This document shows positions 33,268 through 38,783 of a stretch of DNA of 64,000 nucleotides, piece after piece. The notes under the pieces are model-generated. The model made no database searches, was not told the origin of the DNA, and was given only the letters and a program-made list of their open reading frames with translations. How positions within the stretch are numbered: position 1 is the first letter of the stretch; the number at the start of each line of letters is the position of its first letter. The translations under genes and the position numbers were made by a program. Source of the DNA: Fistulifera solaris (lineage: Eukaryota); assembly GCA_030295235.1 (NCBI GenBank), contig AP026123.1, positions 2,356,001 through 2,420,000 on the forward strand, written 5' to 3'.

Positions 33268-35523
33268 ATGACCAGTGAAGACGCGATAATCAGTGATGCG
33301 TTTACGGAAGGGGAAAATGCCGAGACAGACGACCAAGATGATCTGGAGGACGTTGTGGTAGAGGAACTAGAAATTTTAGGAACGGAACAGGTGCCAGTGC
33401 AAAGCGAAACGATGAAAGAAGGGGAGTTGGAGGAGAATGAAAGTAGTTTGACGGATATTGAAATAACAACAGCAGATGGAAATAGTAACGACAAGAACTA
33501 CGAAGATAGACAAGAACTAGAAACAAACGGGGAAGATTCCGAGACAGACGATCTTCCTGACGTCGTGGTAGAGGATCAACTCGTCGTAGAAACAAGGAAA
33601 CAGGTGCCACTTGAAAGCGAAAAGGCAAAGGAAGGTGACTTGCCTCTGGAGGAGAATGAAAGTAGTTTGACGGAAATTGAAATAACAACAGCAGATGGAA
33701 AGGGTACTAACGAGAAGAACGACGAAGAAAGAGAAGAAGCAAACGAACAGAGTCCGTCCGAAATGGCTTCCGAGGACTACGAGCAAACGTCACAGGCGGT
33801 GGATACGGTGAATGTGGAGCCAGTAGTTGAAACACCGTGGAGTCTCGAAGAATGTTTGTACGGAGTTTGTACGACCACCACCACTCCCGATGACGACTCG
33901 TTGGTCGATGACGATTGGGTGCACATTCGAGAACCGGGATTGTGGAAGACCACCCCGCACACGATCGATTTAACGTTGTTGCGCAAAATGGCCTCGCAAG
34001 TGGGGATCCCGGACGAAGGAAGTCATCGCGCCGTAGCCTGGCGTGTGTTGTTGGGCTATTTGCCGCCCGATAACAGAGAGTGGGAACGGACTCTCCAAGA
34101 ACGACGACAGGAATACAAGGCCTTTGTTAAAGAGTGGTTTTCCAATTCGCACGATTGTTTTCATGGTGATGAGTTGCGATGGAAGCACCGTAAGGCACCG
34201 AATCGTTGTCATGATGCGGATCAAGAAGAAGAAACACATGTTCCAGAAGCATCCGAGCCAGGCATCGAAGAAGATGACAATCAGCTTCACAGTCCGGTAC
34301 GAGATCGGCTGAAAAAGGCCGGCTTGGATGCGGGAGTATTAGATTCGATTCTCAAGAATTTCAATTCACTGCAAATTTCCAAAGTCAGCGATGCCGCTAC
34401 AGAAGACGTGTCAAATGACGTGGACTTTGTCGATGGCGTCCAGCTACTGGATCAAATCCGCAAAGACGTCGATCGCACATTTCCGGATCTGAAATTTTTC
34501 TTGGATCCGGAACGGAATTTGGGCAAGAGACGATATGCGGCATTGGAACGAATCTTGTTCACGTGGAGCAAATTCAACAAGGGAGTCAACTATGTGCAGG
34601 GCATGAATGAAATTGTGGGTACCATCTATTATGTCCTGGCCAATGACTGGAACGAAGAATGGGCCCAAGAAGCTGAAGCGGACACGTTCTGGTTGTTTGG
34701 AATACTGTTGGGAGATATGCACGATGTTTTCATTTCTCATTTGGATACCTCCGAGACGGGCATCTATTCTCGCATTAAAATGATGGAAACGCTCCTCCGT
34801 CGCCATGATGCCGAAATCATCGAACATTTCAATGATATTGGTATCGAAAGCTCCTTTTCGCCATACGATGGTGGACTACATTACTTTCGCGTGAATTCTT
34901 GCTGCCCGATACGATTCGACTATGGGATAGTATGTTTGCATCGACCCACAAAGATAACTTCCTTTGTTATGTCTGCGTGACTATGGTAATTATGATCCGC
35001 GAGCAACTACTGAAAGGTGATTTTTCAGTTTGTTTGCGGACGCTGCAATCCTATCCGTCCATAAGGATGGATGAGTTACTGACAGCGTCTCGGACTCTTT
35101 GGTTGTACGAGCGGCAAATAACGGTTGCTTGTCATAGAGGGGGGCATCGGACTACAACAGGCACTAGAGGCTGTGAAGCCCCCGGATGCTATCATTATGG
35201 CTTTTGGCTTTCGGGGTGGTATTCTTCCGGGGTCGCAATGGGAAAATAAAAGTCCTTCCAGAGTCGAAGCTATCCAAAAAGCTCGCGAGGCAGCCGCTGC
35301 TTCCGTTCGGGGGGCCGGTAGTGCTGTGAAAGGCTGGTTAGGACGAGCCACCAAACTCGCTAGCAATTTAGGAGACCAAGTCAAGCTTACGAGAACGGTT
35401 TCAGCCGAAAGTACGCATTCCGGTGAGATGGTCTTAGATTCTTTCTCCGCTGACGAAGAAGACGATATCTACATGCAGGCAATCCAAAGTGCCGAATCGG
35501 GAAAATATTCCTACACAAAATAG
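33268..35523 (+). CDS. TBC-domain Rab GAP (TBC1D13-like), frameshifts near 34860 and 35140
   Basis: GIPD...RAVAWRVLLGYLP, IRKDVDRT (Arg finger), YVQGMNE (Gln finger), EADTFW and LPDTIRLWD. Confidence 0.9.
33320..33740 (+). repeat. Imperfect tandem duplication of about 220 bp within the TBC gene N-terminus
   Basis: GAGACAGACGA..., CAGGTGCCA and GGAGGAGAATGAAAGTAGTTTGACGGA(T/A)ATTGAAATAACAACAGCAGATGGAAA each occur twice. Peptide EENESSLT(D/E)IEITTADG is present twice. Confidence 0.85.
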
Positions 35524-35551
35524 AAAAAACATAGACGTACAAGTATATTTG

Positions 35552-36948
35552 TTATACATGTTCAGGTACCGCCTTTTGGGAATTTCCACAGTAAAGACTC
35601 CCGGGTTTCCTCGCATTCGTATCGGCTCGTTGAGCCAATGCGCTTCTACTATTTCGGTGCAAAATTTTCCAATCCCACTCGCGGGAGCTAGTACTTTCTG
35701 TTGCAAATCCTTCGAGTTGAGTTCCTTTTCGTTCGCCATCCACGTTTTCCCTATCGTTACCACGCCTATCACACAGCCTCGGTCAAATTTGGGGCGAAGA
35801 TTGCTTGCTTTTTGTATCTCGTCGCTAGACATGCCCTTTTCTTTCAGAATGGTCTTGTAGGACTCCAGGTCATGCCAATCTTTCCGTCCACAGTGCAGAA
35901 GAAGGCGCGTTCCCGGTTTGATATCCTGGAACATTGGATTGTTGCGGCTTTCGACGGTCTTGATTCCGTTCAATAAAAGAGCAGCAAACGGCTGTGACAT
36001 TGTGAAACACGGCCTTGCCACCATTTCGCCTCCTGTCAGTATCGTAGCCGAGGGACGACCTTGTCCATTGGTATTTGTTTCGAAATCAACCCTGTCGCCC
36101 GTCTGCAGTTTCATACCGGCAGGAACTTTTGATTCATGCACAAAATATTCGGCACCCGTCGCTTCATCCACCACAAATCCAAAACGTTTGGTGGGTGAAT
36201 AAAACTTGACACTTCCCGAGCATTTGGTTCCAGCTGGTTGGTTGGGCTCGGCAATTTGCAAATTGCTCGCATCCAAAATGTATCCCATCCAGTGCGGATC
36301 ATTGTGACCGGCTTTCAGTTCACTGAACTTGTGCAAGGCCTTTACAAAATGCTCGATCGTCAGACCCCTGGGCGTGTGACAGGACAGTACTCCCAATTGG
36401 GACGTTTCTCCCAAATTCATGCGCGCATCATCATCAAAAAAGAGCATGGAGGAATACGAGACACCCGATGCCGCACGAATATCGGCCAAGTGTTGTTTCT
36501 TACTGCCGGTTCGAATTTCAATGTACCGAAACAAGGATCGCAAGGGTGTTGTATCGATGGTAAATTCGTGCAACAACTGTTCTGCCCAAGTACCTTTGCT
36601 GGTGCGACTCGCAATCGCTAGTTCCACTTCATGCAACGGATGACCGGGTTCGATATCCTGGATAAACTGGAGTATTTCCATGCTGGCCGGAAACAAGCGA
36701 ATATCGCGATTCACGACCGGACGCTGTCGAATTTGGTACAGCTCGGGCGTCCAGAGTGTATTGTCGAGATCAAAGATAATGACCTTTGGAACAGCTTGAA
36801 GCGACGCCAGACTTTCGAGTGTCATCGTACTCGGTGCTGCCGAAGAATGCAATCGAGTCGATCTGCCCGGTCGAGTCGTCATTGGGAAACCCAGCGATCG
36901 ATTCGGAAACGAGAGAAATGCCAACCACAAAATGCGACAAATAGACAT
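35552..36948 (-). CDS. MDP-1-type HAD phosphatase + cold-shock domain + ASCH (EOLA1-like) fusion with plastid-type presequence
   Basis: IIFDLDNTLW, AIASRT and LFFDDD (MDP-1). GSVKFYSPTKRFGFV...EYFVHES (cold-shock RNP1/RNP2). CFTMSQPFAALLLNGIKTVESR...WLNEPIRMRG (ASCH GxKxxExR). The stop at 35552 assumes a 1-nt indel near 35575; the track ORF runs on to 35434 into the TBC gene. Confidence 0.85.
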
Positions 36949-38783
36949 GACTGTGTGGAAAAAAAAACCACAGGAATCCGCTATCGACCACCCAAAGACA
37001 TATTAGATGTCAATCGTTCCCAATCGCAAGATACCTGGTATCTCTTTGGTGTTGATAACATATCAGATATTCCTCATAAACAAGGCAATGGAACCTTGGA
37101 ATGGACGCGACCGCGACGACGGTGCGACTTTGGTTTCTGCCAAAGGGATAGGGATATCATCATCAAGACCACAATATTATTATTGACCATAATACAAAAG
37201 AAGTCGAATCATTCATGAGCGCATATGACTGAGTTCTGACGTAGATAATAACTTCAATGGTGCAATGCAAGCTGAACTAGCTAGAGTGAGTAGCAAGTAG
37301 CATGAAAAATTTATTATTACTGGCACGGTATAATGAAAAGATATCGTTGGCGACTTGAGTCTCATGACTGATTTTCAGTCGTGGGAAAGGTCGCTGGGAG
37401 ACACGGGAACGCACCTCTGCTTGGTACATTTTTCTACGGGGCCTACGTGAGTGTACACTTTTTCCCGAACCATCCCGGCTTTTAGTCAACACGGAAAAAC
37501 CTTTCGCAGTCCGCAGGGATTAAATATGCCGGTGAGATGATGAGATCGTACAATCCTTTCATGAGGATCGAGCTTGATTTTGAATTTTTTCAATAAAAAA
37601 ATATAAGATGTAGCTTGTCATTAATGGCATGCAAACAATCTCCTACTCCGAAACAATTTCGGATGCAGTCGTGGTGAAAGTTCAATTTCTTGGATGTCAT
37701 TATTTATTTTAATGCTTTAGAAGCAAAACTCATAAGATTATTAAAGCTGCAGGCTTTGGTTGACAACTTTGATCGCAGATCGCAGAACCGCACTCCGTGC
37801 TCCGTGCCCTTCTTATCTTTAGAGAGAGCCAATTTCGTACTCCTTCATTTCGTAAACTTAGACATTTTCAAAACTAATAAGTACAAAGACTGAAGACCTT
37901 AGATCCTATCTTCTATGGGAACGGGTGTACGATGTGTGTGTGTCAACCTGGCTCCAACGGGCGATGCCAGACCAGAGATATCAACCCTTACGGGGACGTC
38001 TGCGATCTGACAACATAGACCCATCTAGAGAGAGCCTCTTTTACGGAGTACCAGTACTTGTACGTGGTCGTTTTCTTCGAGGAGGTCCAAATATCCGAAC
38101 CCATTATCGTCACTCGTCACGTCATCGTGCATCACAGGCTACTGGCCACTGGCCACTGTCCCGTTGCGTACAGAAAACGGAGAATGTGATGATACGTGAT
38201 AAGTGATAAGTGATCCATTGTACATGGTACCGGTACTGTACTATAATGATGCACAATTTCTAAGTGTTTACCATTCCCCGTGAGGGAGTGGGCGGATATT
38301 ATTGTATTTAACCCGATTCCTGATACGAGATATCCTGACTACTTTCGTCTTTCGTACCAGGTAATCTACTTATCAAGAACAAAATATATATCCCGAAAGA
38401 ATAATCTTGGCCATAGTAAGGAAGTAGGAATATTTCTCGCTATAGTATTTTATTCGAAGTACATGGTTCGTATTTATCGCGGGAACAGTGTCAACTGATA
38501 ACAATCACACTAGCGTACAGAGTACTCTAAGTGTTGAACGTTGAACGTCAGCCGCAAGATCCTGATCCAGAACATTCCAATTGCCCCAAAAGAATAATCT
38601 TCGCCATGCTTTCGCCCGATCGACCCAATCGATCGAGGTCTTTTCGACCTTTTAACTCTTTCTCAAACTCTAGAGTGAACGATAAATTTCGAAGAAAGAC
38701 TTCGCAGATCGTAGGCTACGGTACTTGCCAACTTTCTCCCATTGATTACGTTGCATTTGATCTTTGACGCATTTGGCCCCGAC

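Follow-up and report, generated by a model that had tools for sequence, protein, structure and literature searches.

Two of the domains described here have close relatives among stand-alone proteins. Animal MDP-1, a phosphatase of HAD subfamily IIIC, is a stand-alone protein of ∼165–187 residues whose known substrates are protein fructosamine-6-phosphates and sugar phosphates, not nucleotides, and in the established HAD classification cap-less members tend toward macromolecular substrates. A literature search on MDP-1 and fructosamine-6-phosphate turned up no openly readable study of this enzyme. EOLA1 (CXorf40A), a stand-alone protein of 158 residues, carries the ASCH domain, of which the cavity motif GxKxxExR has been defined (PMC6803910). 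The model for ac4C hydrolysis by this fold family is E. coli YqfB, an N4-acetylcytidine amidohydrolase that is also stand-alone and, unlike the protein described below, has no RNA-binding part.

The biochemical function of EOLA1 has been newly assigned, and the preprints, as far as their accessible text goes, disagree as to whether it serves in salvage of free ac4C, as a tRNA eraser or as a mitochondrial translation factor. In the first (bioRxiv 10.64898/2026.08.01.741249), human EOLA1 is reported to deacetylate free ac4C(TP) as well as ac4C in unstructured, but not structured or hairpin, RNA, for which K21, E24 and R26 are required; a structural study cited there found mouse EOLA1 to be inactive on free ac4C. 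According to a second 2026 preprint, EOLA1 and 18 other ASCH proteins lower tRNA ac4C, with the K and E residues being essential, and the ac4C nucleoside is only partly hydrolyzed by EOLA1 after long incubation; its discussion states that mitochondrial tRNAs are without ac4C. A third 2026 preprint reports that EOLA1 resides in the mitochondrial matrix, binds 12S rRNA and TUFM, and is needed for mitochondrial translation. The location of the human or mouse protein differs by preprint, being either the cytosol near ribosomes or the mitochondrial matrix.

[quoted passage not shown] As described there, these are very probably the same architecture family as the fusion that we report here, and the words "diatom," "plastid," "chloroplast," "alga" and "cold shock" are absent from the preprint's main text. 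A sequence-only reading of our locus had held the architecture to be undescribed, which is not wholly the case given this one-sentence precedent, although our literature search found no paper on the algal distribution of the fusion or on its plastid leader. Further searches on ASCH, cold shock and HAD or phosphatase fusions in plastids or algae returned nothing relevant, nor did we find a paper joining magnesium-dependent phosphatase and diatoms. The taxa, paralogues, leaders and domain-order variants of the fusion are worked out in the present analysis.

The fusion gene lies on the minus strand of the window, by which we mean the whole 64,000-nucleotide stretch of Fistulifera solaris DNA that was analyzed, and our best reading starts from a nuclear, intron-less diatom gene. 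From an ATG at 36948, one open reading frame runs through four parts, namely a leader, an MDP-1-type HAD phosphatase domain, a cold-shock domain and an EOLA1-type ASCH domain. The sequence-only reading had given this as a single frame ending at 35552; the continuous frame through all domains stands, but it reaches 35552 only once a single base is corrected. The span from 36948 to 35552 is 1397 bases, which is no multiple of three, and the frame as assembled passes 35552 and reaches a stop at 35434–35436 only after 44 unrelated residues. The conserved C terminus, AVPEHV followed by TAA (35552–35554), is instead read in the +1 frame, and the database protein P0002, which is 99% identical, ends in ...IPKKAVPEHV. 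In a contig of public run X1 (depth 18.4/18.4) there is an extra base at 35573/35574, which makes the short A-run at 35574–35577 on the minus strand one longer, such that both X1 and P0002 imply five A where the window has four. One extra A at this point restores the AVPEHV frame and gives an intron-less gene of 465 codons plus the stop, ending at 35552. The shift falls downstream of all three domains, which are unaffected by it.

The 44-residue tail of the assembled frame (35434–35571, minus strand) is unmatched in any orthologue of alignment A1, overlaps the 3′ end of convergent plus-strand open reading frames, and probably forms no part of the true gene product. A 3′ intron (GT...AG, 59 bases, 35511–35569) was considered as an explanation for this odd tail and rejected, as the +1 frame yields the conserved C terminus directly and no joint is seen. 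A gene-model artefact merging neighboring genes was likewise rejected, given that the DNA frame is continuous and that complete transcriptome ORFs of other diatoms cover the three domains. Three public runs match the gene; they are contigs of uncertain kind that extend into intergenic DNA on its upstream side as well and are therefore uninformative on transcription.

Residues 53–210 (36319–36792, minus strand) form the MDP-1-type HAD phosphatase domain, which is matched by Pfam Acid_PPase/MDP-1 (PF12689; E 1.8e-38, 132.5 bits versus a cut-off of 27), by the NCBIfam MDP-1 equivalog TIGR01685 (71.5 bits versus 53.75), by TIGR01681 HAD-IIIC (52.2 bits versus 35.75) and by the human MDP-1 structure 2wm8 (E 2.7e-15), with ∼32% identity to MDP-1. 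Each of the four HAD motifs lines up with its counterpart in 2wm8: DLDNT (motif I, 36757–36771), ASRT (II), GSKK (III) and FFDDD (IV). In an AlphaFold2 model (pLDDT 94) the predicted HAD fold gives Foldseek TM-scores (target-normalized) of 0.83 to 1u7o and 0.77 to 2wm8, its best matches being MDP-1 and uncharacterized HADs, not polynucleotide kinase-phosphatase. Across 73 sequences, reaching from diatoms to Chromera, Cymbomonas and Chrysotila, the residues D, D and T of motif I, S, R and T of motif II, K of motif III and D of motif IV are invariant. The loop after motif I departs from that of MDP-1, being W-x-P-E-L-Y here and W-x-P-E-L/M-Y in all fused forms, reversed ones included, as compared with WPFW in 2wm8. 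This difference suggests a substrate other than that of animal MDP-1, from which the algal domain also differs in being fused to nucleic-acid modules.

The cold-shock domain occupies residues 244–303 (36040–36219, minus strand), where Pfam CSD (PF00313) matches with an E value of 6.3e-10 (39.2 bits versus a cut-off of 27). Csp structures match it with E values down to 2e-6, and the TM-score (target-normalized) to 5jx4 is 0.84. Both RNA-binding motifs, RNP1 (KRFGFV) and RNP2 (YFVHE), are present, residues Lys-254, Phe-256, Gly-257, Phe-258, Phe-269 and His-271 being invariant in alignment A1 and the G and F of the domain in the set of 73 sequences.

The C-terminal third of the 465-residue protein is the EOLA1-type ASCH domain, residues 308–459 (35572–36027, minus strand), to which the EOLA1/CXorf40 structures 6kir, 9kyi and 5y7d match with E values of 8e-23 (over chain positions 3–153) to 4e-18. 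Along its full length the domain is ∼30% identical to EOLA1 (for P0002, E 1.5e-23), and the modeled fold superimposes on 6kir with a TM-score (target-normalized) of 0.87 and an rmsd of 1.9 Å. The motif GIKTVESR (35944–35967) corresponds to GxKxxExR, and Thr-316, Lys-330, Glu-333 and Arg-335 align with Ser-7, Lys-21, Glu-24 and Arg-26 of EOLA1, the K/E/R triad being invariant in 73 sequences. With YqfB the domain shares the fold family and the catalytic K and R, but YqfB, of the GK[T/S]R group, has T or S where the algal protein, EOLA1 and TRIP4 have E (the GKER group). TRIP4/ASC-1, which a preprint places in the same ASCH clade, is like the algal protein multidomain and acts near ribosomes and nucleic acids, yet its ASCH domain is only 18% identical, gives TM-scores (target-normalized) of 0.59–0.70 and has other partner domains. 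Pfam ASCH (PF04266) falls below its gathering score (15.2 bits versus 21.2, E 0.037) and covers residues 316–352 only; among the 120 homologues listed, no PF04266 occurs in the precomputed Pfam annotation. The triple fusion with intact catalytic and RNA-binding motifs had been proposed from the bare sequence, and the Pfam, NCBIfam and structure matches bear it out over agreeing ranges, with DLDNT, FFDDD, KRFGFV/YFVHE and GIKTVESR all in place.

Ahead of these domains, residues 1–20 (36889–36948, minus strand) resemble a signal peptide ending in ...NRSLG, with Phe-21 following directly, an arrangement like that of the ASAF-type plastid motif of diatoms; assigned by eye, the leader is MSICRILWLAFLSFPNRSLG–F (the dash marks the boundary). 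Residues 21–45 (36814–36888, minus strand) are transit-peptide-like, rich in R, S and T, the first acidic residue being Glu-45. The leader can be aligned to that of P0005 (...SLSLC–F) and that of P0007 (...QSIS–F), two relatives, and both paralogue clades of diatoms carry such leaders, frequently in the classic ...SA–F form. Among the 120 homologues listed, 79 begin with M and have at least 45 residues before motif I; by a crude and uncontrolled heuristic, a hydrophobic N-terminal window is found in 61 of these 79, and in 55 of the 61 a small residue precedes F, W or Y (F in 43). The features of a diatom-type bipartite leader, SLG–F and then an R/S/T-rich stretch as had been claimed for this gene, are by eye present and kept in relatives, and plastid import by way of a signal peptide and a transit peptide would be consistent with them.

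Database proteins matching at E ≤ 0.001 number 260, far beyond chance. In a scan of 257 proteins with our own domain profiles, the order HAD-CSD-ASCH was found in 141, HAD-ASCH in 17 and ASCH-HAD in 7, in keeping with the earlier expectation that orthologues would hold the three domains together. Many diatoms carry the full three-domain fusion as a pair of paralogues; haptophytes, Chromera and a prasinophyte have it as well. The form lacking the cold-shock domain is seen in the pelagophytes Aureoumbra, Chrysophaeum and Pelagophyceae CCMP2097 and in the bolidophyte Triparma, and the reversed order in the dinoflagellates Alexandrium and Cladocopium. Each of the 12 genera named outside the diatoms as having a fused form is from a photosynthetic lineage. 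That the HAD and ASCH domains remain linked whether or not a cold-shock domain is present argues for one shared pathway. MMETSP transcriptome ORFs labeled "type:complete" contain all three domains (P0036, P0042 and P0058–P0060), which means that one mRNA encodes the fusion in other diatoms, as had been anticipated for this gene. In a HAD tree of 132 rows the reversed-order, dinoflagellate-type HADs cluster (17 rows, 2 changes), but fusions cannot be counted on this tree, since a large number of the "HAD-only" rows represent pieces of fused proteins that nest among these. A complex prediction for the HAD part versus the ASCH part of P0002, run without a custom alignment, scored 0.04 versus a mark of 0.34.

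The architecture is seen in the sequences to be conserved, with its leader and with intact residues for catalysis and binding; the two activities, their substrate, the order of the two reactions and the plastid location are what we infer. Our preferred reading, to which we give a probability of roughly 45%, is a plastid enzyme that would clear or salvage modified cytidine nucleotides arising from RNA breakdown. The mature protein would combine an RNA tether and two enzymes in a single polypeptide, in which the cold-shock domain would hold single-stranded RNA or oligonucleotides, the cap-less MDP-1-type HAD would take off a phosphate, and the EOLA1-type ASCH domain would cleave an N4-acyl group, most likely acetyl, from cytidine. 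Breakdown products of plastid RNA, that is modified cytidine nucleotides and short oligonucleotides, would in this way be both dephosphorylated and deacylated, so that cytidine could be salvaged and the modified nucleotide barred from the nucleotide pool. The N4-acetylcytidine amidohydrolase activity is proposed by analogy with human EOLA1 and other ASCH proteins, for which preprints report it, and the suggestion that the fusion handles ac4C or modified nucleotides, made before from the sequence, has gained plausibility from these 2026 reports. Against the salvage reading, an enzyme for mononucleotides has no obvious need of a cold-shock domain, the known substrates of animal MDP-1 are not nucleotides, and several non-diatom members are leaderless in their database models. 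Mouse EOLA1, as cited above, was found inactive on free ac4C, the nucleoside was only partly hydrolyzed by EOLA1 in the second preprint, and the occurrence of ac4C in plastid RNA is not established in the sources available to us, which give no defined site in any plastid RNA; a review of chloroplast tRNAs, in its accessible part, gives C34 of tRNA-Met as unmodified and records ac4C just as detected in rice chloroplast lysate.

The protein might instead work on intact or nicked plastid RNA and not on free nucleotides, with the cold-shock domain melting or holding single strands, the ASCH domain flipping out and deacylating the base within the polymer, and the HAD removing a 3′ or 5′ phosphate to make the RNA fit for repair, polyadenylation or degradation. 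We consider such an RNA-level eraser and end-healing enzyme possible but doubtful. A fused chaperone or binder of single-stranded RNA would supply the unstructured substrate on which EOLA1 is reported to act, the RNP1/RNP2 residues are invariant, ASCH proteins are reported to lower tRNA ac4C in vivo, the preprint authors' prediction for the fused HAD concerns RNA termini, and the cap-less MDP-1 fold (TM-score, target-normalized, 0.83) is of the kind that favors macromolecules. However, the pelagophyte and bolidophyte forms keep both enzymes without the cold-shock domain, the accessible literature gives no plastid RNA with ac4C at a defined site, and the closest folds of the HAD are not those of polynucleotide kinase-phosphatase. 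We regard as improbable an RNA-tethered two-enzyme plastid machine that removes N4-acyl marks and terminal phosphates, its substrate being plastid RNA or fragments of it. If it were real, it would be the first system for RNA demodification or repair to be assigned to a plastid, the algal fusions would expose a phosphatase as the missing partner activity of EOLA1-type ASCH proteins, and, together with the mitochondrial role reported for EOLA1, these proteins would at root be organelle gene-expression factors. That mitochondrial role also suggests, by analogy, a plastid translation factor, in which elongation would be promoted through contacts of the ASCH domain with small-subunit rRNA and EF-Tu, the cold-shock domain would contribute further affinity for RNA, and catalysis would be secondary or vestigial. 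The matrix location, 12S rRNA and TUFM binding and translation requirement in the third preprint favor it, as do the organelle leaders of the algal proteins and the parallel between mitochondrial tRNAs reported to be without ac4C and the doubtful plastid ac4C. Vestigial sites would nevertheless not be expected to retain the ASCH K/E/R residues and four HAD motifs invariant over very distant algae, and the constant partnership with a phosphatase, reversed order included, is left unexplained; this explanation is unlikely.

More unlikely again is that the protein is not plastidial but carries an ordinary secretory signal, or truly starts at Met-23 or Met-42, its site of action being the ER, the extracellular space or the cytosol. 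It is true that the database models of the nearest relatives (P0002, P0003, P0004 and P0006) begin at internal Met residues and omit the leader, that those of Chromera (P0135) and pelagophytes (P0150 and P0163) are without one, and that the leader count is an uncontrolled heuristic. Yet the upstream frame, hydrophobic stretch and aromatic residue are kept in P0005, P0007 and both diatom paralogue clades, and the stretch after the signal is basic, hydroxyl-rich and acid-free in the manner of a transit peptide. The passed MDP-1 equivalog cut-off and the matching MDP-1 structures would also fit a phosphatase that repairs sugar phosphates or glycated proteins as in animals, with the other domains unrelated or regulatory. 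This we judge very improbable, considering that the loop after motif I differs from WPFW and that both fusion partners are nucleic-acid modules.

The fusion bears on the disagreement over EOLA1, as the natural joining of an EOLA1-type domain with a phosphatase and a single-stranded RNA binder offers separate evidence on the pathway. Kept in three domain arrangements across diatoms, haptophytes, chromerids, pelagophytes and dinoflagellates, the fusion suggests that the substrate is phosphorylated and derived from RNA and, for diatoms, that the plastid is the place of action, and it is a tractable experimental subject in transformable algae. Public entries for these proteins are titled either "magnesium-dependent phosphatase 1" or else "CSD domain-containing protein," and the third domain is hidden in public annotation because the Pfam ASCH model misses it.

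The minus-strand frame that opens with the ATG at 36948 encodes three domains in one chain. Residues 53-210 form an MDP-1-type HAD phosphatase (Pfam Acid_PPase, E 1.8e-38), which scores 71.5 bits against the NCBIfam MDP-1 equivalog (cut-off 53.75). This is followed by a cold-shock domain (CSD) at residues 244-303 (Pfam CSD, E 6.3e-10) and, at residues 308-459, by an EOLA1/CXorf40-like ASCH domain that was recognized through solved structures (E 8e-23 to 4e-18), the Pfam ASCH model staying under its cut-off (E 0.037). The domain coordinates proposed in the sequence-only reading agree with these residue ranges once converted to window positions, and its named motifs (DLDNT, FFDDD, RNP1, RNP2 and GIKTVESR) are all present in the translated frame. 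An AlphaFold2 model, made on a 73-sequence alignment for P0002, a database protein 99% identical to that of the window, has a mean pLDDT of 94.0 and a pTM of 0.65. With TM-scores normalized to target length, the ASCH part of this model superposes on EOLA1 at 0.87 (rmsd 1.9 Å), the HAD part on MDP-1 at 0.83 and the CSD part on bacterial cold-shock proteins at 0.84.

The 3' end of the gene is less simple than had been proposed, because the single frame 36948-35552 would measure 1397 bases and is hence impossible. As assembled, the frame runs beyond 35552 to a stop at 35434-35436, which adds a tail of 44 residues with no counterpart in any orthologue. Read from 35572 in the +1 frame, the sequence gives AVPEHV followed by TAA (35552-35554), which is the same end as that of P0002 (...IPKKAVPEHV) and is similar to the C termini of a Fistulifera solaris protein and other orthologues. 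The window has four A residues at 35574-35577 where the P0002 protein implies one base more, and a contig of the public sequencing run X1 has an extra base at 35573/35574 at a depth of 18.4 of 18.4, giving a run of five A that restores the frame. We attribute the missing base to an assembly error or to allelic variation; the shift lies 3' of all three domains, and the last seven residues alone are exchanged for the longer tail. No joints were seen across 34855-37207, and the gene thus has no intron in that span. Between 34855 and 35781 the X1 contigs are paired, with one set identical to the window and the other ∼6% different (19/289 and 11/188 letters, for example), which points to a source organism with two haplotypes or with homeologous copies of its genome.

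A homologue search with the protein of the window returned 260 proteins at E<=0.001, and query coverage exceeds 95% in most of the 120 listed, where the named diatoms are Fistulifera, Amphora, Entomoneis, Mayamaea, Epithemia, Attheya, Thalassiosira, Stephanocyclus, Conticribra, Cyclostephanos and Cyclotella. Among 1.84 billion cluster representatives there were 1595 matches at E<=0.001, 354 at 1e-10 and 77 at 1e-30. When our own profiles of the three domains were scanned against 257 proteins, 141 had the order HAD-CSD-ASCH, as expected if orthologues keep the domains together. HAD-ASCH was found in 17 and the reversed ASCH-HAD in 7; CSD-ASCH and HAD-CSD, mostly fragments, accounted for 10 each, HAD only for 50 and ASCH only for 13. 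The proposal of one mRNA holds in part, namely for other diatoms, in which MMETSP transcriptome ORFs marked as complete span all three domains and so indicate a single message for the fusion.

Taxa were assigned to these architectures from cluster look-ups and two further searches, and the resulting picture rests on named matches, a minority of the total. Outside diatoms the triple fusion occurs in Chromera velia, Cymbomonas tetramitiformis, Prymnesium parvum, Aureococcus and an entry labelled Heterosigma. Chrysotila carterae was counted with them on a putative CSD indicated by a UniRef name and an RNP1-like motif only, which neither our profile nor Pfam detected. Aureoumbra, Chrysophaeum, Pelagophyceae CCMP2097 and Triparma have HAD-ASCH without the CSD, and Alexandrium and Cladocopium have the reversed order. 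All 12 named non-diatom genera with the fused form belong to photosynthetic lineages; the green lineage contributed only Cymbomonas and two relatives, and among the named matches a fused form was seen in no animal, fungus, land plant, oomycete, ciliate or apicomplexan. A protein atlas groups 131 proteins in a diatom cluster and 50 in one of haptophytes. In a tree of 37 full-length proteins the diatoms fall into two well-supported clades (SH-aLRT 100 and 99), and since Attheya is present in both, diatoms have two paralogues, that of the window grouping with Fistulifera, Amphora and Mayamaea. P0400, the protein labelled Heterosigma akashiwo (a raphidophyte), sits within diatom clade B beside a Coscinodiscus transcript, a placement that may reflect contamination or transfer.

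The N terminus reads MSICRILWLAFLSFPNRSLG and continues with F and an R/S/T-rich stretch, the first acidic residue being Glu-45. Relatives at 79% and 74% identity (P0005 and P0007) share this arrangement (...SLSLC|F and ...QSIS|F), and aromatic-ended leaders occur in both diatom paralogue clades. By a crude heuristic without control, applied to the 120 homologues listed, 79 start with M and have at least 45 residues ahead of HAD motif I; 61 of these have a hydrophobic N-terminal window, and in 55 of the 61 a small residue is followed by F, W or Y (F in 43, with the classic ...SA|F frequent). Plastid targeting is, on these features, a well-motivated prediction rather than a result. The public models of the closest relatives (P0002, P0003, P0004 and P0006) begin at internal Met residues without the leader, and the precomputed Pfam annotation lacks the ASCH domain in all 120 listed homologues, so that both the targeting and the third domain are invisible in current annotation. 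Seven haptophyte/chromerid-type homologues (P0135, P0076, P0128, P0193, P0287, P0293 and P0350) carry G-G-(I/V/T)-(L/V/K)-Q-(P/Q/A)-R just N-terminal to the HAD domain, often directly behind a hydrophobic leader or straight after the Met.

Across the 73 aligned sequences the invariant residues are the D, D and T of HAD motif I, S, R and T of motif II, the motif III K and one D of motif IV; G and F of RNP1; and the ASCH K, E and R, a signature matching the GxKxxExR cavity defined in PMC6803910. Residue by residue, Thr-316, Lys-330, Glu-333 and Arg-335 align with Ser-7, Lys-21, Glu-24 and Arg-26 of EOLA1, whose pocket is described in bioRxiv 10.64898/2026.08.01.741249 as Lys-21, Glu-24 and Arg-26 with a conserved S/T at position 7. 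Whereas human MDP-1 has WPFW after motif I, every fused form, the reversed ones included, has W-x-P-E-L/M-Y, which marks the phosphatase as a separate branch within the MDP-1 family; judged from this loop, it probably has a substrate of its own.

HAD and ASCH are kept together in three arrangements, with the CSD optional, and in our view nothing indicates more strongly that the phosphatase and the amidohydrolase may act on the same molecule. We favor, at a probability of roughly 0.45, a plastid enzyme for the clean-up and salvage of what RNA decay releases, either modified nucleotides of cytidine or short oligonucleotides. The protein would remove the phosphate and the acyl group, the cytidine would return to the pool, and through the CSD the enzyme would stay attached to single-stranded RNA fragments. 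All readings that invoke ac4C share one weakness, namely that its occurrence in plastids is not established: one review gives chloroplast tRNA-Met C34 as unmodified and, for chloroplast ac4C, only a detection in rice chloroplast lysate (PMC8877259). Some other base with an N-acyl group may be the substrate instead.

The main rival, which we consider unlikely, is action on RNA itself. Both ac4C(TP) in free form and ac4C within unstructured RNA are deacetylated by human EOLA1, which requires Arg-26 and leaves hairpin ac4C intact (bioRxiv 10.64898/2026.08.01.741249), a restriction that makes a fused RNA chaperone attractive for this reading; according to a second preprint, 19 ASCH proteins including EOLA1 lower tRNA ac4C, the Lys and Glu being essential, and EOLA1 is weak on the free nucleoside (bioRxiv 10.64898/2026.02.27.708502). 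Less probable still is a ribosome-factor role by analogy with EOLA1 of the mitochondrial matrix, bound there to 12S rRNA and TUFM according to bioRxiv 10.64898/2026.01.12.699056, as it would leave both the invariant catalytic residues and the constant phosphatase partner unexplained. The value of the fusion lies mainly in its being a natural experiment on what EOLA1 does, which is in dispute.

The domains themselves are already known, and the architecture, of which the sequence-only reading knew no description, is touched on by one sentence on such fusions in bioRxiv 10.64898/2026.08.01.741249, whose main text mentions no diatoms, plastids, algae or cold shock. Our literature search found no paper on the diatom protein with its three domains, on its two diatom paralogues, its spread across photosynthetic lineages, the CSD-free or reversed-order variants, the plastid leader or the distinct HAD loop.

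Roughly 450 bases ahead of the ATG, ∼48 bases at 37394-37441 have word depths in the thousands in X1 against ∼22 around them, with flanks that are many and different; the segment, single copy within the window and not a tRNA, looks like a dispersed high-copy repeat. On the other side a convergent plus-strand neighbor with a RabGAP-TBC domain (33268-35523; Pfam E 3.3e-23) is apparently divided, through introns or frame changes, among several ORFs, and its 3' end meets or overlaps that of the fusion gene.
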